From an uncultured bacterium (GTDB lineage: Bacteria > Krumholzibacteriota > Krumholzibacteriia > LZORAL124-64-63), in NCBI GenBank assembly GCA_963772145.1, contig CAVYVY010000011.1, positions 67,607 to 131,606 of the forward strand: a DNA stretch of 64,000 bases, written 5' to 3'. Of this stretch, positions 5,772 to 13,653 are shown in pieces (position 1 is the first letter of the stretch; every line of letters begins with the position of its first letter). The position numbers were made by a program, and so were the translations under genes. The notes below the pieces were generated by a model that searched no databases, was not told the DNA's origin, and saw only the letters and a list, made by a program, of their open reading frames with translations.

Positions 5772-5951
5772 TGTATGTATATTTATATATGTCTAGTATG
5801 GCTCATTTCATGAATCCGCCCGCCCCCGTGCGCCGAGGGGCCCACAAGTCCGCGGCTCACAGCGGATGGATCGCACAAAGCGTCTGGCGCTGGTCGATTC
5901 GGGGCTGGAGGCGTTAGAATCGGGGGACAACCCTCGCACCGGGAGGAAGCG

Positions 5952-6593
5952 ATGCAGGCCAGCGAGCACGAGGCGATGTGCCAGGCGGTGGTGGACGGCG
6001 ACACGGAGCGGGCCCGGACGCTCGCCCAGGGGATCGTGGAGTCGCGGGGGGATCTGCTGGCGGCGGTGGAGCACGGTTTCGCCGCCGGGATCCGCCGGGT
6101 CGGGGAGCTCTGGGAGGAGGGCGAGTACTTCCTGCCGGAACTGGTGCAGGGGGCCGAGGCGATGAAGGCCGCCATGGAGATCCTGAATCCGGCGCTGGTG
6201 GCGGGGCGCGGAGGCGCGCCGGCGCGGGCCGGGGTGGTCATCGGAACGGTGCGCGGGGACCTCCACGACATCGGCAAGGGGCTCGTCGCCACGCTCCTCT
6301 CGGCCCACGGATTCGAGGTTCACGACCTCGGGAGCGATGTCCCCATCGAGGCGTTCGTGGCCCGGGCGGGCGAGACCGGGGCCAGGATCGTGGCCGCCTC
6401 GGCGCTGCTCACGACGACGATGACGGCCCAGCGGGACCTCGTGCGCGCGATCGCGGAGGCCGGGCTGGCGCCCCGGGTGCGGGTGCTGGTGGGCGGAGCC
6501 CCGACCTCCGCGGCGTGGGCGGCCGAGATCGGCGCCGCGCACGCGGAGAACGCGCTGCGCGCGGTGGCGGTGGCGGAGGGGTTGGTCGCGTGA
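5952..6593 (+). CDS. Cobalamin-binding corrinoid protein (methyltransferase cognate)
   Basis: 213 aa with the B12-binding DxHxxG signature in GDLHDIGKG, a helical cap N-terminal to it and a Rossmann-like C-terminal half (RVLVGGAP). GGGAGGAAG lies 3 nt before the ATG. Confidence 0.85.
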   Translation: MQASEHEAMCQAVVDGDTERARTLAQGIVESRGDLLAAVEHGFAAGIRRVGELWEEGEYFLPELVQGAEAMKAAMEILNPALVAGRGGAPARAGVVIGTVRGDLHDIGKGLVATLLSAHGFEVHDLGSDVPIEAFVARAGETGARIVAASALLTTTMTAQRDLVRAIAEAGLAPRVRVLVGGAPTSAAWAAEIGAAHAENALRAVAVAEGLVA

Positions 6594-7510
6594 GCGGCCA
6601 TGCGGGTTCGATCGGCCTGGGCGCCCGCCTGCGGGCGGGGCCGGTGCTGCTTCTCGATGGCGGCCTCGGTTCGTCGCTCATCGAGCGGGGGCTGACCGCC
6701 GGGATGGCCCCCGACGCCTGGAACCTCGAGCGGCCGGCCGACGTCGCGGCGGTCCATCGCTCCTTCGTCGCGGCGGGGAGCGAGGCGATCCACGCCAACA
6801 CCTTCGGCGGCAACCGGATCAGGCTCGCGCGCGCCGGGCTGGCCGATCGGCTGGCGGAGGTCAACGCGGCGGCCGTGGCGCTGGCGCGCGGGGCGGGCGC
6901 GGCGTTCGTGATCGGCGACCTCGGTCCCACCGGCGAGTATCTGCCCCCGGTCGGCGCCGGGGATCCCGAGGCCTGGGCCGCGTCCTCCCTGGAGCAGGCG
7001 AAGGCGCTCGTCGCCGCCGGGGTGGACGGCATCCATCTCGAGACGATGAGCGATCTGCGCGAGGCGCGGATCGGCATCGCCGCGGTGCGCTCGCTCTCGG
7101 CCGACCTCCCGCTCCTGGCCTCGCTGACCTTCGAACGGAAGAAGCGGGGCTTCTTCACGGTCATGGGCGACCGGCTCGTGCCCGCCCTGCAGGCGCTGCG
7201 TGAAGCCGGGGCCGACGTGGTCGGGGCCAACTGCACGCTCGGGAGCGACGATTTCCGGGCGCTGGCGGCGGAGGCGCTCTCGGCCGGGTTGCCGCTCGTC
7301 CTCCAGCCGAACGCCGGGCAACCCGAGGTGGTGGCGGGGCGCGTGGTCTACCGACAGACGCCCGCGGCGTTCGCCGACGACCTGGCCGCGGTCCTGGCCC
7401 TGCCCGCGGACGGCGGCGGGCGGATCGCGGCGGTGGGCGGATGCTGCGGATGCGACGCCCGTTTCATCGCGGCGTTGCGTGGCCGGATTTCCGGGGCGCC
7501 GCCTCCATGA
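6590..7510 (+). CDS. Homocysteine S-methyltransferase-domain protein (MetH N-terminal module-like)
   Basis: From GTG 6590 (GTGA overlap with the previous stop) the translation reads LLLDGGLGSSLIERG...HANTFGGN...GANCTLG...AAVGGCCGCD. The three Cys match the zinc ligands of the S-methyl_trans family. The 5978..6589 part of the track ORF is an Arg/Gly-rich out-of-frame read of the corrinoid gene. Confidence 0.8.
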   Translation: MSGHAGSIGLGARLRAGPVLLLDGGLGSSLIERGLTAGMAPDAWNLERPADVAAVHRSFVAAGSEAIHANTFGGNRIRLARAGLADRLAEVNAAAVALARGAGAAFVIGDLGPTGEYLPPVGAGDPEAWAASSLEQAKALVAAGVDGIHLETMSDLREARIGIAAVRSLSADLPLLASLTFERKKRGFFTVMGDRLVPALQALREAGADVVGANCTLGSDDFRALAAEALSAGLPLVLQPNAGQPEVVAGRVVYRQTPAAFADDLAAVLALPADGGGRIAAVGGCCGCDARFIAALRGRISGAPPP

Positions 7511-8217
7511 TCGACGTCCTGTCCATCGAGACCCCGCTGGCGGAGGTGCATCGCCTGCTGGGATATCCCGCGGGACGCGTCGTTCCGGAGCGCGTGCAGT
7601 CGCGGCTGGAGGCGCTCCTGGCGGAGAGCCGGAGCCTGATCGAGGCGCGCGGGGCCCACGCGCGGTTTCCCGTGGCCGACGCCGCGGCCGTGCAGCTGAC
7701 CCGGCCGGGGCCCGCGCACGCCCTGGGGGGCTTCGCGCTCGGACTGGTCACGATCGGCCCGGGGGTCGAGACACGCGCCGCGGCCATGCTGAACGCGGGG
7801 GACGCGAGCGGCGCCCTGTTGCTCGACGCGATCGGATCGGCGGCCGCGGAGGCGGCGGCCGATGCGCTCGGGAGCCGCATCGCGGACGGGGCGGCGGCCG
7901 GCGAGAGGCTCGCCTCCCCGGACTCCGGCGCCGGCGGTGGCGGTGGCGCGGAGATGGCGCTCTCCCCCTGCCGCGTCAGCCCCGGCTACGGCGACTGGCC
8001 GCTGTCCGCGCAGGAGGCGATCTTCGCGCGTCTCCCCCACGGGGAACTCGGCGTGCGGCTCCTCCCCTCGCTGCTCATGGTGCCACGCAAATCGGTCACC
8101 TTCGCCCTCTGGTTCGACGCCGCCGGACACGCCCTCGGCGACCGGCGCGGCTGCTCGTGCTGCCCGCTGGATCACTGCCCGCGGCAGACGACACGGCAGG
8201 AAGGAAAACCGGCATGA
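7507..8217 (+). CDS. Methionine-synthase activation-domain-like protein (Met_synt_B12-like)
   Basis: From ATG 7507 (ATGA overlap), the block SPGYGDWPLSAQEAIFARL...LLPSLLMVPRKSVTFALW resembles the vitamin-B12-dependent methionine synthase activation/AdoMet-binding domain family. Confidence 0.55.
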   Translation: MIDVLSIETPLAEVHRLLGYPAGRVVPERVQSRLEALLAESRSLIEARGAHARFPVADAAAVQLTRPGPAHALGGFALGLVTIGPGVETRAAAMLNAGDASGALLLDAIGSAAAEAAADALGSRIADGAAAGERLASPDSGAGGGGGAEMALSPCRVSPGYGDWPLSAQEAIFARLPHGELGVRLLPSLLMVPRKSVTFALWFDAAGHALGDRRGCSCCPLDHCPRQTTRQEGKPA

Positions 8218-9680
8218 ACTCCGCGTATCGTCCCCTGGTCCGCGTTCTCGATCCGGCGGAGCCGTCGCGCATCGTCGACGAGGCGATCGCCGTGCTCGAA
8301 CACATCGGCGTGCGCGTCGACAGCGAGGCCGGGCGGACCCTGCTCCTCGACGCCGGGGCCACGGCCGGCGGCGACCGGCTGCGGATTCCCGAAGCGCTGG
8401 TGCGGCACGCGCTGGCCACGGTCCCGCACGCGATCCCCCTGTTCGACCGCGACGGGAGCCCGGCCGCCGATCTGTCCGGAGACCGGGTGCACTTCGACCC
8501 CGGTTCGGCGGCGATCCATGTGCTCGACCCGCGCACCGGGAAGCGACGCGCAGCCGTCACCGCCGACGTCGTGGACCTGGTGCGTCTCGTCGACGGCCTC
8601 CCCCACTACGCGATCCAGTCGACGGCCCTGCTCGCCGCCGACGTCCCACCGGAGGTGGCCGACCGCTACCGGCTCTACCTGGCCCTGCGGCACGGCCGCA
8701 AGCCGATCGTGACCGGCACCTTCCGCACCGACGGCTTCGCGCCGATGCGCGACCTGCTCGTGGCGGCGCGGGGTGGCGCGTCGGCGCTGGCCGAGCGCCC
8801 GCTGGCCATCTTCGACTGCTGCCCGAGCCCGCCCCTCGCCTGGAGCGATCTCACCTGCCAGGCGCTGCTCGACTGCGCCCGCGCGGGGATCCCGGCCAAC
8901 CTGATCTCGATGCCGCTGGCCGGCGCCACGGCGCCGGTGACCCTGCGCGAGTCGGTGGTGCAGCATGCGGCCGAGAGTCTCTCGGGAATCGTCCTCCACC
9001 AGCTGGCGGCGCCCGGCGCGCCGATCTCGTGGGGCGGCGCACCCGCGGCGTTCGACATGCGCCACGGGACGACCCCCATGGGGTCGATGGAAACGATGCT
9101 CCTGAACCTCGCCAACGCCCAGGTCGGCAAGCACCTCGGCCTGCCGGTCCACGGGTACCTCGCCCTCTCGGACGCCAAGACGCCCGACTACCAGGCCGGC
9201 ATGGAGACCGGCATGGGGGCGGTGCTGGCCGCGCTGGCCGGGATCAACCTCGTCTCGGGGCCGGGGATCCTCGACTACATCCTCACCCAGTCGCCGGAGA
9301 AGCTGCTGCTCGACCATGAGGCCTGCGGGATGGCGCTGCGGCTGGTGCGCGGCATCGCGACGACCCCGGCCGACACGCTGGCCCTCTTCGCCGACCTGGT
9401 GCGGACCGGGGAGTTCCTCTCGCATCCGCACACGCGGGCCAACTGGAAGTCGGAACTGACCGTGCCGTCGGCCCTGATCGACCGCGACACCTGGGCCGAC
9501 TGGGAAGCGAAAGGGGCCCTCGACGCGGCCGCGCGGGCGCGGGCGGAAGTGACGCGCCGGCTCGCGAAAGCGACCGGCTCCCCCGCGCCCGACCCGCTCG
9601 CGGCAGAGCTCGACCGCATCATGCTGGCGGAGGTCTCCCGCTATGGGATGACGCGGCTGCCGGGGGTGGGGCGGGGGTAG
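8214..9680 (+). CDS. MttB-superfamily (trimethylamine methyltransferase-like) non-pyrrolysine methyltransferase
   Basis: 488 aa from ATG 8214 (ATGA overlap). Blocks such as ISMPLAGATAPVTL, GGAPAAFDMRHG and SGPGILDY fit my recollection of the MttB family. There is no in-frame TAG. The 7200..8213 part of the track ORF is an overlapping-frame artefact. Confidence 0.8.
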   Translation: MNSAYRPLVRVLDPAEPSRIVDEAIAVLEHIGVRVDSEAGRTLLLDAGATAGGDRLRIPEALVRHALATVPHAIPLFDRDGSPAADLSGDRVHFDPGSAAIHVLDPRTGKRRAAVTADVVDLVRLVDGLPHYAIQSTALLAADVPPEVADRYRLYLALRHGRKPIVTGTFRTDGFAPMRDLLVAARGGASALAERPLAIFDCCPSPPLAWSDLTCQALLDCARAGIPANLISMPLAGATAPVTLRESVVQHAAESLSGIVLHQLAAPGAPISWGGAPAAFDMRHGTTPMGSMETMLLNLANAQVGKHLGLPVHGYLALSDAKTPDYQAGMETGMGAVLAALAGINLVSGPGILDYILTQSPEKLLLDHEACGMALRLVRGIATTPADTLALFADLVRTGEFLSHPHTRANWKSELTVPSALIDRDTWADWEAKGALDAAARARAEVTRRLAKATGSPAPDPLAAELDRIMLAEVSRYGMTRLPGVGRG

Positions 9681-9805
9681 CGCGGAGTCTGGTTGCGCGG
9701 CTGCGGGCCGGACTGAGTCGAAATCAGGGGCCGGATCTACGCCGTATTCGAACCCGAGCAGGACCCGGCAACGTCGACCGCGATCGTGCCCGATCCGGCC
9801 GGCGC

Positions 9806-10432
9806 TTGAAGCCCGGCTCATCTGGCGTTAGGCCTAGAAATGTAGATAGGGCAGCAATGAATGGCATAGATGTCCGCAGAACAGATGATCATCACGTCGC
9901 ATTCTTGAGCGGATGGGCCGACGCTTTTCCTGAGAACATCTGGATCGCGGGGGTTGATCTCCGAAATCACCCGCGCCCGCGCGAGTACCGGCTTAAAGCC
10001 GCCATGCCAACGTGGTCCGGTCCCGAGGGGAAGACTTCTTCCTGCATCGCAGCTTCCTTCGACCTACACATTGAATGCGTCGTTGATGACGCCGGCCAGC
10101 CAAAAGGCGCGCTGAAAGTTCATCTTGAGACTAATCCCTATGCACTCGAGAAAAAGAGCGGATGTACAAGCGGCCAGTGGGATCCAGGTTGCGAAGCCTG
10201 CCAGCGGAGACACGCGGCAAAACACCTATTGGCTCAAAGTGGCGCCATCGACTTTGGGACTTGGCAGATCGCGCCGAGTCGAAACAAGTTGACGTTGGCC
10301 AAGTTGCCCAAACGGTTGCTGAGCCAGCAAACGTCCACAGAACAAGTGTCGGCGTTCTTGAAGTCCGTCATGGGAGCAAGCGAGAAGTGGGCAAATGCAG
10401 CAATTCAGGGCTGGACGATGTGGCGCTCTTAA
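9806..10432 (+). CDS. Orphan hypothetical protein in a lower-GC segment
   Basis: 208-aa ORF (an alternative ATG at 9857 gives MNGIDVRR...). Codon usage is visibly less GC-biased than in neighbouring genes. No recognisable motifs. Confidence 0.35.
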   Translation: MKPGSSGVRPRNVDRAAMNGIDVRRTDDHHVAFLSGWADAFPENIWIAGVDLRNHPRPREYRLKAAMPTWSGPEGKTSSCIAASFDLHIECVVDDAGQPKGALKVHLETNPYALEKKSGCTSGQWDPGCEACQRRHAAKHLLAQSGAIDFGTWQIAPSRNKLTLAKLPKRLLSQQTSTEQVSAFLKSVMGASEKWANAAIQGWTMWRS

Positions 10433-10498
10433 TTGTCCTCCGGAGCACCCTGTCGGCCCCGCAATGGCCCGCGCTGACGCATGTCCGGTGGTAGGCGT

Positions 10499-10642
10499 GT
10501 CGAGTTCGCCACGCTCGACTGGATGGACTGGTTCAACAACCGGCGGCTGCTCGAGCCGATCGGATACATTCCCCCCGCCGAGTTCGAAGAGATGTACTTT
10601 CGGAGTCAGGAAGCCCCGGCCTTGATGGCCGGACTCACGTAA
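10499..10642 (+). mobile_element. C-terminal remnant of an IS3-family transposase (integrase-core tail)
   Basis: My translation gives VEFATLDWMDWFNNRRLLEPIGYIPPAEFEEMYFRSQEAPALMAGLT*, the typical extreme C-terminus of IS3-family OrfB. No upstream transposase body or inverted repeats were seen. It is too short to appear in the ORF track. Confidence 0.6.
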
Positions 10643-10971
10643 CGGAGGCTCCGGAGAACCCGGGGCGGTTCACGGCCTGACGAATTCTGCGCCGATCCTG
10701 ATTACCGTCAAGCGTGGGAGTCTGTTCGCAAGCGGCGTCATCGGTCCGCCACGGTCGTGTCCGCCATTGAATCCACCCACATACCGACCTATCATCGAAT
10801 CCGATCGGCCCCGCGGCCTCCGTTGAGTCGTCAGGATCTGCCCGCACAGGGACGGATGGGATTATTGGTAGGCAAGGGGAAACCCAGTCGGCAAGGAGAC
10901 TATGGCCAATCACATGGCCTGATGTGTCTCCTGGAGATACCAGGTCCTGCCCAAACCCAGGGGGGAACCAG

Positions 10972-13404
10972 ATGGGACGCATTCTTCAAGGTCTATTGTT
11001 GACGCTGGCTTTCGCCTGCTCCGCCATTCCTGCGGCAGCCCAGGCGGACTGGCTCCAGGATGGTTTGAATCTGACGAATGGCCTGGGTGATTTGATTGTG
11101 GAACGAGCGGTCACAGATGGTCACGGCGGCTGCATCGTTGCAATGCTCATCTGGGGCCAAGCCGGTGTTGATGTCCGGGCGCAGCATGTCGATGCCGCGG
11201 GGACGCGCTTATGGGGCACCGCTGGCACCCTGGTTTCAGCTGGAACAGCCAACAGCTACTGGATCGCGTGGCTTCATGTGGTGCCGGATGGAGCGGACGG
11301 CGCCATTGTTGTCTGGGCCGGCGGCGATCAACAGAGTGCCCTAATCGCGCAACGGCTGAATGCGACTGGCGAAAGGCTGTGGGCCACTGAGGGCGTTCCG
11401 CTATGCGCGCTGGCCGCAAGGCCGGGCAACTCTTCGGCTGCTGCGTCTGATGGCCTGGGTGGCGCCATCGTGGTCTGGGAAGACGGACGCGACCCGGCCG
11501 GGAGCGACATCTACGCACAACGAATCAGCAACAGTGGGCAGTGCCTGTGGGACCAGGACGGCGTTGCAGTGTGTCTGGCCGCGGGCGATCAGGTCAATCC
11601 ACACGCAGTTCCAGACGGCACAGGGGGAGGAATCTTTGCCTGGGAGGACCAGCGCAGTGATTACTCAGGCACGTGGACAGACATCTACGCGAGACGCGTG
11701 AATGCTGCGGGCCAGGCACTGTGGGCCACCGACGGCACTGCCGTTTCAACCGCAGCGGGCGAACAACACGACGTCGCCATGGCGATCGATGGAGCCGGCG
11801 GTGCTTATGTAAGCTGGGATGGGCCGTATCAAGATTCGCACGGCATCGCAGCGCAACGCCTGAATAGCGATGGCATGGCGCAATGGTCGGCGGGCGGAGT
11901 GCTGATCGGATATCGCGGAGGCCAATACGTCCTGACACCTGATGTCGCCGGCGGCCTGAGTGTTGTGTTCAAATATGACCCAACATCTGGGCCGCCATTC
12001 TACATTATGATGCAACACTTCGATGGCACTGGAACATCGACGTGGGATGGTCCGATGTCCGTGTGCAGAAGCACGGAATCGATCTACAGTATTCGCGCGG
12101 TGGCTGGTGCGAACGGAGACGTGATTGTCTCGTGGACTTCTGGCGAACGTCTTCGCGCCCAGCTCGTGAGTGAGCGAGGGGAGCAACTTTGGGCTGCTGC
12201 CGGGGTCCCCGTCTGCAACCTCCCGAATGTTGTTGAGCCTCAACTTGTGCCAGGCGCTGATGGATCAACGATCTTCGTCTGGCTGGACTGGCGGAGCCAG
12301 CAGTTCGAAATCTACGCACAGATCATTGACTCCCGGGGTGTCTGGGGGGCGCCTTCTCCGATCATCGGATGGCTGCGAGATGTGGCTGCCGATGAAGGAG
12401 GATGGCTCGACCTGCGCGTCATGTCGCCGACTCACGATCGGGAGGGAGTAACCGACGACCCCATCATCGGCTACAACGTATGGCGGAGATTGCCTGCTGC
12501 CCCGGGCGGCGGGAACGCGAGCCTCGACAGCGACAAGACGGGAATGGAGATCTTCTCTGCGATTGAGGCGCCACTCAACACCGATTGCGTACACCTGACG
12601 GTCGAGCAGGCGACAACAGCCGGGTTCCCTCCAGGTGAGTGGGCTTCCGTGGGATTCCATGCGGCGGTGCAGGCTGAAGAGTATCGATTTGTAGTTCCCA
12701 CAAGGCAGGACGCTATCGGAGACATGACTCCCTGGGAAATGTTCGCCGTAAGCGCCCACACCGCAAGGCCAGGAATCTACTTCATCTCCGGCCAGGACAG
12801 CGCCTTTTCCATAGACAATCTCGAGCCGGCCACGCCGGATGGCATCGCGGGTTTTGTCAGGGAGGATGCGAACGGGCTGGACTTGAGTTGGTCTGCCGCC
12901 AGGGAGAGCGATTTCGCACAGTATGTCGTCTCAAGGGGAGCGAACCCGGAATTCACGCCCGGACCGGATTCCTGGCTGGCCTATCCGACGCAGTCACACT
13001 ACTTCGATGCGGAATGGACTCCAGATAATCGCTACTACTACAAGGTGGTGGCCGTCGATCGGCATGGCAACCAGAGCGCACCCGCGCTTCTGGCGCCGGA
13101 CGACGCGCGCGGAGAAGACGTGCCATCCGCGCTGTTTCTGGCCCAGAATGCGCCCAATCCCTTCAATCCCCGAACCAGAATGGCCTTTGGTTTGGTCAAC
13201 TCCGGAGCGGTATCCTTGCGCATCTACGACGTGGCGGGGCGTCTCGTGAAGACTCTCGTGGAGGGTATGTTCCTGCCGGGATCTTACTCACGCGAATGGG
13301 ATGGTCGTGGCGATCACGGGGAGGCCATCGCCTCCGCGGTCTACGTGGTTCGGTTGGTAACGGAACAGGGAATTCGAACTAGTAAGCTCACGTTGGCCCG
13401 GTAG
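10972..13404 (+). CDS. Secreted tandem-repeat (beta-propeller-like) protein with an FN3-like module and NPFNPRT C-terminal domain
   Basis: ATG 10972 follows GGGGGAA. Signal peptide MGRILQGLLLTLAFACSAIPAAAQA. About 55-aa repeats of the form LW(A/G)T.G..V.......DG.GGAIVVW.D.R....DIYAQR. An FN3-like block (FAQYVVSRG...YYYKVVAVDRHGNQSAP). C-terminus NAPNPFNPRTRMAFGL...IYDVAGRLV...WDGRGDHG...KLTLAR. Confidence 0.75.
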   Translation: MGRILQGLLLTLAFACSAIPAAAQADWLQDGLNLTNGLGDLIVERAVTDGHGGCIVAMLIWGQAGVDVRAQHVDAAGTRLWGTAGTLVSAGTANSYWIAWLHVVPDGADGAIVVWAGGDQQSALIAQRLNATGERLWATEGVPLCALAARPGNSSAAASDGLGGAIVVWEDGRDPAGSDIYAQRISNSGQCLWDQDGVAVCLAAGDQVNPHAVPDGTGGGIFAWEDQRSDYSGTWTDIYARRVNAAGQALWATDGTAVSTAAGEQHDVAMAIDGAGGAYVSWDGPYQDSHGIAAQRLNSDGMAQWSAGGVLIGYRGGQYVLTPDVAGGLSVVFKYDPTSGPPFYIMMQHFDGTGTSTWDGPMSVCRSTESIYSIRAVAGANGDVIVSWTSGERLRAQLVSERGEQLWAAAGVPVCNLPNVVEPQLVPGADGSTIFVWLDWRSQQFEIYAQIIDSRGVWGAPSPIIGWLRDVAADEGGWLDLRVMSPTHDREGVTDDPIIGYNVWRRLPAAPGGGNASLDSDKTGMEIFSAIEAPLNTDCVHLTVEQATTAGFPPGEWASVGFHAAVQAEEYRFVVPTRQDAIGDMTPWEMFAVSAHTARPGIYFISGQDSAFSIDNLEPATPDGIAGFVREDANGLDLSWSAARESDFAQYVVSRGANPEFTPGPDSWLAYPTQSHYFDAEWTPDNRYYYKVVAVDRHGNQSAPALLAPDDARGEDVPSALFLAQNAPNPFNPRTRMAFGLVNSGAVSLRIYDVAGRLVKTLVEGMFLPGSYSREWDGRGDHGEAIASAVYVVRLVTEQGIRTSKLTLAR

Positions 13405-13653
13405 CACTGGTTCCTTTCCTTTTTCCGTCACGCGAAGAGTCCTTCCCGGGAAACCATGTCGGGCTTTCCGGCGAGGTTATCTGCGCACAGAATCGCCCCT
13501 CCACGATGACGAGGCCAACCGCCCCTCTCGGCCTTCGCGTGCCCTTCCCTCACTCCCGCGCTTGAACCTTGGTGCAATTGGCGTTAGGATGCCCTCAGTT
13601 GTCCGAGCGGATGTTCCGTCGCCCGTTTGCTGCTAATTGGAGAGGATCTTCCT

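Follow-up and report, generated by a model that had tools for sequence, protein, structure and literature searches.

A gene cluster hypothesised to support corrinoid-dependent methionine synthesis was described by Williams et al. (2022, Environ Microbiol, PMC9324843) in Ca. Electryoneota and "diverse bacteria". Its MttB homologue belongs to an uncharacterised clade apart from MtgB and MttB, nearer to MttB, canonical MetH co-exists with it, and the methyl donor is not named. Here we analyse an operon of the same kind, four overlapping genes (g1 to g4) at positions 5952-9680 on the + strand of a 64,000-nucleotide stretch (the window) of contig CAVYVY010000011.1 from an uncultured bacterium. On balance we think it probable, judging from the encoded proteins, that this operon specifies a four-component cobalamin-dependent methionine synthase that works without methyl-tetrahydrofolate (methyl-THF). 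All four gene types of the 2022 cluster are adjacent on one strand, as seen from the open reading frames (ORFs) of the window and Pfam, and the two also agree in the clade position of MttB, in the co-existing MetH and in the hypothesis. Nothing essential differs, and the window cassette is a clean further example, in Candidatus Eisenbacteria, of a predicted system and not a new kind. A sequence-only reading of the window had put forward the same hypothesis for the cassette, and in both it was anticipated by Williams et al. In its main text that paper does not analyse the residues of the donor site or those of the activation protein. The present additions are the missing glycine-betaine residues, a CxxCx4C motif in g3, the absence of a free pterin module and of RamA in Eisenbacteria relatives, and the absence of MetH and MetE, with an unlinked pterin module, in Krumholzibacteriota.

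Genetic work in Ruegeria has established that one corrinoid protein serves MtgB, the pterin protein MtgD and the homocysteine module MtgE (Mausz et al. 2025, PMC12478193); a split MetH was described by Price et al. 2018, as cited in the same paper. The MtgBCDE system of Ruegeria pomeroyi and Phaeobacter inhibens resembles the window cassette in that a separate corrinoid protein (MtgC) is shared by an MttB-family enzyme (MtgB) and a homocysteine module (MtgE), and in that demethylation of a methylated amine is tied to methionine synthesis. It differs in needing the pterin-binding MtgD, in being reactivated by RamA/DUF1638, in having its genes mostly scattered and in using glycine betaine as donor, whereas the window cassette is one overlapping operon with a TM0269-like protein, has no glycine-betaine residues, and was found with neither a pterin module nor RamA. 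In Desulfitobacterium hafniense, MtgB (PDB 2QNE, 9YCE; PMC13080624) is likewise a TIM barrel of the MttB superfamily free of pyrrolysine (Pyl), with a methylamine-type corrinoid partner, MtgC, but the acceptor there is the pterin-binding MtgA, where the window cassette has a homocysteine domain.

The reactivation protein has its closest counterpart in Thermotoga maritima, in which TM0268 and TM0269 (PDB 1J6R) are a short MetH and a stand-alone reactivation protein (Huang et al. 2007, as cited in PMC7857596). TM0269 is the closest relative of the g3 product in both sequence and fold, and the RxxxGY motif is kept; however, TM0269 has 214 amino acids and no Cys tail and serves a MetH in which homocysteine, pterin and B12 modules are fused, whereas the g3 product carries CxxCx4C and would serve a free corrinoid protein. 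Set against the modular definition of MetH, the cassette has the homocysteine barrel, the B12 module and the reactivation module but lacks the pterin (methyl-THF) module.

The four genes and their products

A Shine-Dalgarno-like GGGAGG (5941..5946, + strand), recognised by reading the sequence, stands 5 nt ahead of the ATG of g1. The junctions g1/g2, g2/g3 and g3/g4 are the start/stop overlaps GTGA, ATGA and ATGA, the GTG start of g2 overlapping the stop of g1. The sequence-only reading had described four translationally coupled genes for a B12-binding corrinoid protein, a homocysteine domain with three zinc cysteines, a MetH activation-domain-like protein and a non-Pyl MttB-superfamily enzyme, and the ORFs, profile matches and residues reported below bear out each of these descriptions.

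The product of g1 (5952..6593, + strand, 213 aa) is a cobalamin-binding corrinoid protein of the methylamine/MtgC type. It matches the Pfam domains B12-binding_2 and B12-binding with 73 and 85 bits, and its best NCBIfam scores are to methylamine-type corrinoid proteins (MtgC, 198 bits, and pyl_corrinoid, 180 bits, each under the equivalog cut-off), with 117 bits to the B12 region of MetH. The cobalamin motifs DxHDIGK (DxHxxG), SALLTTTM (SxL) and GG are invariant among 44 aligned orthologues.

A stand-alone homocysteine S-methyltransferase domain is encoded by g2 (6590..7510, + strand, 306 aa, GTG start). It matches S-methyl_trans (PF02574) with 177 bits, and its zinc ligands C215, C285 and C286 are invariant among 43 aligned orthologues. 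A Pfam profile search, proposed earlier as a check on this gene, gave no match to the pterin domain (PF00809) in any of g1-g4, and g2 is not pterin-binding. A complex of the g1 and g2 products was predicted with a score of 0.57, the best of three controls scoring 0.00; at least 75% of the contacts agreed between runs, and the partner pLDDT was at least 88. The mark applied to such predictions is reached by 58 of 80 solved complexes and by 2 of 110 mismatched pairs, and just 7 of the 80 solved complexes, together with both mismatches, reach it at 0.60 or under, so that the verdict on the pair is weak support. MetH structures with both domains have already been solved; therefore the pass may reflect likeness only.

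The family of g2 also bears on another explanation, in which g2 is a corrinoid-independent enzyme of the MmuM or betaine-homocysteine methyltransferase (BHMT) type, using S-methylmethionine, S-adenosylmethionine (AdoMet) or betaine directly, and is merely co-located with an MttB/corrinoid pair that serves another acceptor. PF02574 takes in corrinoid-independent enzymes, and the nearest NCBIfam models of g2, the N-terminal half of YitJ (205 bits) and the rhizobial 'betaine-homocysteine MT' PRK07534 (167 bits), both fall below their cut-offs but outscore MetH. In at least five Acidobacteriota loci an APC/LAT-type permease also stands directly 5' of the cassette, an arrangement that recalls the mmuP-mmuM pair of E. 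coli. We nevertheless consider a corrinoid-independent g2 very unlikely. The gene is held by 4-nt overlaps between the corrinoid and reactivation genes and is co-inherited with them in two gene orders across phyla, no alternative methyl-acceptor enzyme is conserved nearby, and the rhizobial 'BHMT' has itself been reinterpreted as the corrinoid-dependent module MtgE.

The third gene, g3 (7507..8217, + strand, 236 aa), encodes a TM0269-like stand-alone MetH reactivation (AdoMet-binding) protein with a C-terminal Cys motif. Its best sequence match in the PDB is 1j6r, that is, TM0269 of T. maritima, and a Foldseek search with its AF2 model (pLDDT 86.5, the Cys tail being of low confidence) returned 1j6r at the top (E 3e-10, TMt 0.70), followed by MetH reactivation domains. 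R156-x-S-P-G-Y161, which corresponds to the RxxxGY AdoMet motif of MetH activation domains, is invariant among 44 orthologues. Because of this motif, the 1J6R match and the reactivation-domain fold of the model, we take g3 to be a genuine MetH-type reactivation module, with a presumed role in AdoMet-dependent reactivation.

The C-terminal motif of the g3 product, C216-x2-C219-x4-C224 (window 8152-8178), is nearly invariant, being present in 40 of the 44 orthologues. At E <= 1e-30 the family comprises 818 clusters (50% identity), nearly all of whose members are annotated 'hypothetical', and RxSPGY and the Cys motif occur together in 240 of about 260 full-length members retrieved. The CxxCx4C motif is missing from TM0269 itself; from its sequence it may be a metal or Fe-S site. 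A g3-like gene was also seen in a different corrinoid cluster, locus L111, along with genes for MTHFR, a URO-D-type methyltransferase, a corrinoid protein, an MFS transporter, Pterin_bind and CobW; this member (L111:5001-5702) has the Cys motif without RxSPGY. Its presence there indicates that the g3 family is not restricted to MttB cassettes.

The MttB homologue and its methyl donor

The last gene, g4 (8214..9680, + strand, 488 aa), encodes a non-pyrrolysine methyltransferase of the MttB superfamily, presumed to be the methyl-donor:corrinoid methyltransferase. It matches MTTB (PF06253) with 264 bits and TIGR02369 with 327 bits against a cut-off of 525. Its placement was by phmmer scores against the PDB and by residue mapping. 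The scores were 185 bits for MttB (7xcl), 167 bits for MtgB (2qne/9yce) and 120 bits for 4yyc. By these sequence scores g4 appears about equally distant from Pyl-MttB and MtgB, and the somewhat higher score with MttB is in line with what was reported for the Williams clade.

No in-frame TAG occurs in the g4 ORF. The codon equivalent to Pyl334, codon 318, is CTC for Leu, at a position that is variable within the clade, and the residues that support Pyl in MttB are likewise unmatched, Tyr364 being replaced by Ser348 and Gly110-Thr111 by Ser98-Ala99. A candidate Pyl insertion signal, an Rfam match to PYLIS_3 at window 9165-9264, was sub-threshold (20.6 bits against a gathering value of 38, E 0.48) and was rejected; it starts exactly at codon 318 and is therefore most likely an echo of coding homology. 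On these residues, the donor of g4 cannot be trimethylamine by way of the pyrrolysine mechanism.

In MtgB, glycine betaine is bound by Y97, R312, H348 and F356, and R312 is conserved in all characterised non-Pyl members, all of which use acidic quaternary amines (Picking et al. 2026, PMC13080624). The corresponding positions in g4 are S98, H313, a gap/S348 and I356, so the glycine-betaine site is absent. The consensus of the g4 clade at the site is S98, H/Q313, S348, F355 and E356, and the clade as a whole has the signature H93, S98, D201, C202, C203, M233, H/Q313 and S348, with D201-C202-C203 invariant in the MttB homologues of cassette members. Two distant paralogues, L105 and L106, have Arg in the R312 column, and L106 also has Tyr at Y97 and His in the H348 column; these residues indicate that the alignment columns are valid. 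As g4 has none of the MtgB binding residues, not even the shared Arg, its donor is unlikely to be glycine betaine, proline betaine, carnitine or another acidic betaine of this kind. The earlier interpretation of the operon held for its architecture, and the donors that it had named are disfavoured.

The kind of compound imported may be hinted at by the permease mentioned above. At least five Acidobacteriota loci (L034:2267-3709, L052:2143-3540, L075:2272-3699, L101:2192-3577 and L078:2102-3547, the last being a variant with RamA) have an APC/LAT-type amino-acid permease gene in the same orientation directly 5' of the cassette or of the variant, and none is present in the window itself. We regard it as a weak hint at an amino-acid-like cationic donor.

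A wider proposal joins two parts. The g4 clade may use a donor class new to the family, neither trimethylamine by way of Pyl nor an acidic betaine, its members being without the Arg and aromatic pair of MtgB and keeping Asp201-Cys202-Cys203, His313 and Ser348; separately, g3 may represent a large unannotated metal or Fe-S family, one that uses AdoMet to activate free corrinoid proteins in general. Based on motifs and residue patterns, this joint proposal is possible and is offered tentatively, as we would sooner expect it to fail than to hold in both its parts. Asp201-Cys202-Cys203 together with His313 might also make up a zinc site suited to a thiol or alcohol leaving group, an idea that was weighed and set aside.

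Co-inheritance, variant loci and genome background

Among species-representative genomes, 79 loci were found to encode relatives of g4, the nearest of them in Candidatus Eisenbacteria metagenome-assembled genomes (MAGs), with g4 identities of 82-95%. The order 1-2-3-4 is found on one strand in 50 of the 79 loci, all four ORFs are complete in 48 of these 50, and the 4-nt overlaps recur in many of them. These loci carry labels of at least eight phyla (Eisenbacteria, Acidobacteriota/Thermoanaerobaculia, Krumholzibacteriota, Myxococcota, Planctomycetota, Latescibacterota and others), although the phylum labels of MAG records may be unreliable. On a tree of the MttB homologues the label 'cassette' requires 4 changes, compared with a mean of 23 after shuffling, and none of 500 shuffles was as low. 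In answer to the conservation check that had been suggested for the cassette, three MetH modules with MttB in the place of the pterin module, the architecture recognised in the sequence-only reading, make up a single unit that is conserved and co-inherited.

Variant loci show how the parts can be exchanged. In two Acidobacteriota loci (L073:2582-8150 and L077:2652-8153) the order is RamA (Fer2 + RACo), g2, a divergent g3, g4 and g1, the divergent g3 having lost RxxxGY and kept CxxCx5C; this operon arranges the same parts in a second order. In L082 (Chloroflexia) and L088 (Symbiobacterium) a corrinoid gene and an MttB gene of the same clade are followed by a Pterin_bind methyltransferase gene, and L078 and L100 have RamA, a corrinoid gene and an MttB gene of the same clade. 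The occurrence of one MttB clade beside either a folate module or a homocysteine module points to a swap in one slot, which agrees with the earlier claim that a homocysteine module occupies the folate-module slot in the window.

Clustering of neighbouring genes revealed no fifth gene conserved across lineages beside the cassette, whether pterin, RamA or transporter. In about 14 Krumholzibacteriota/Latescibacterota loci (L051, L055, L057, L059-L063, L068, L069, L080, L085, L091 and L097) a Pyr_redox_2 gene, thioredoxin-reductase-like and of about 307 aa, lies about 0.6 kb 3' of the MttB gene on the same strand. It could encode a ferredoxin/flavodoxin reductase for reactivation, or it could be plain lineage synteny.

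In the window the cassette is flanked by unrelated genes, those for an RsgA GTPase, an AbiEii toxin, a secreted FlgD_ig protein and DUF2169, and no RamA, pterin-binding or transporter gene is adjacent; the absence of RamA and of a substrate transporter had been read correctly from the sequence. Rfam found no riboswitch upstream, and simple scans of the + strand found no sigma-70-like promoter or terminator. A lower-GC stretch follows the operon (window 9685-13643), about 4 kb here compared with about 1.3 kb in the close relative L038 (7473-8807). Both of its flanks align with L038 at 93-95%, which indicates that DNA was gained here or lost there.

A shared corrinoid protein, such as that shown genetically by Mausz et al. 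(2025, PMC12478193), offers another way to read the operon. In such a hub, as in the MtgBCDE systems of Ruegeria and Phaeobacter, g1-g3 would be the core of a split MetH fed by methyl-THF through a pterin protein encoded elsewhere. Methyl groups entering by way of the MttB homologue, as a second input, would mostly go on to folate in a catabolic route and would not be handed directly to homocysteine. This fits five cassette-bearing Krumholzibacteriota genomes (G016, G018, G021, G022 and G024). They are without full-length MetH or MetE and have an unlinked 269-aa MetH/MtgA-like pterin protein (L109:6625-7434), with 40% identity to the MttB-linked pterin methyltransferase of L088, as well as a YitJ-like gene for a homocysteine methyltransferase/MTHFR. 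In these five genomes the cassette modules may be the sole methionine synthase.

The genomes closer to the window argue otherwise. The window lies on contig C11 of its own genome (G000, a 3.2-Mb assembly that is 63% complete), which has one MTTB gene. Here and in the Eisenbacteria relatives G008, G001 and G002 neither a stand-alone, MtgD-like pterin methyltransferase nor RamA (PF14574) was found, the only pterin domains being FolP and the one inside MetH; DUF1638 was not searched for. The own genome's sole stand-alone pterin protein is FolP, encoded between ftsH and cdaA, and no MetE was found in this partial assembly. Pterin domains are likewise confined to FolP and to the interior of MetH in the acidobacterial genome G005, in which RamA was not found either. 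None of the 50 1-2-3-4 cassettes contains a pterin gene, and for reactivation they have a protein of the biosynthetic (AdoMet) type, where high-flux catabolic systems typically have RamA. Taken together, these data make a hub fed by methyl-THF rather unlikely for the operon of the window.

Full-length MetH is encoded in at least 16 of 33 cassette-bearing genomes. In the own genome the metH gene (C23:1338-4962, L015, outside the window) is full-length by homology and is split by at least seven frame changes; in G008, a 95% relative, it is intact. Aligned between the two genomes, the metH regions show 92% identity. They have 48 gap positions over 5 kb, where the 6.2 kb around the cassette have 17, and the broken gene could be an assembly error or decay. 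The idea that metH is a pseudogene replaced by the cassette was not adopted, given the intact gene of G008. Two full-length MetH paralogues each were observed in the Eisenbacteria-related genomes G001 (C73, C52) and G002 (C30, C7).

A predicted route to methionine

From the identities of the four products we infer which way the methyl group flows, that homocysteine accepts it and what g3 does. In the predicted cycle, g4 would move a methyl group from a small methylated compound onto the Co(I) form of g1, and the zinc-dependent g2 would pass it from methyl-Co(III)-g1 to homocysteine, yielding methionine. Oxidised Co(II)-g1 would be restored by g3 through reductive methylation with AdoMet, the electron coming from a donor encoded elsewhere or possibly by way of a metal site bound by the C-terminal Cys residues of g3. 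Since the system sits beside a canonical MetH in its own lineage, it would most likely be an alternative, folate-sparing route to methionine.

A different product has also to be weighed, as g3 could in principle load a methyl group from AdoMet. A methyl-corrinoid that is AdoMet-primed or methionine-derived would then let the MttB homologue N-methylate an amine, or the acceptor thiol would be something other than homocysteine. We regard this as highly improbable. Every characterised enzyme of the MttB family transfers a methyl group from its substrate to Co(I), g2 has invariant homocysteine and zinc residues, and a cycle driven by AdoMet would use up one AdoMet at each turnover.

Several observations weigh against a methionine synthase that bypasses methyl-THF. 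Canonical metH is present, and intact in G008, so that methionine could be made by the standard route even without the cassette. As the own genome is only 63% complete, its apparent absence of a free pterin module and of RamA is weak evidence. The unlinked pterin protein of Krumholzibacteriota implies that in some lineages methyl groups could pass between the corrinoid protein and folate as well. No linked transporter or downstream catabolic gene was found in the window around the cassette. Finally, the Pfam match of g3 to Met_synt_B12 (PF02965) is marginal, at 25.8 bits against a cut-off of 25, and its assignment rests on the modelled fold and the motif.

The four-gene set is small and self-contained. 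If the methyl-THF-independent reading is true, many uncultured bacteria of soil, peat and sediment would obtain B12-made methionine from an environmental methylated compound, with methyl-folate spared. This would be a third way to feed a corrinoid-dependent methionine synthase and would widen the substrate range of the MttB superfamily, and those Krumholzibacteriota that are without MetH and MetE may depend on the modules of the cassette for their methionine.

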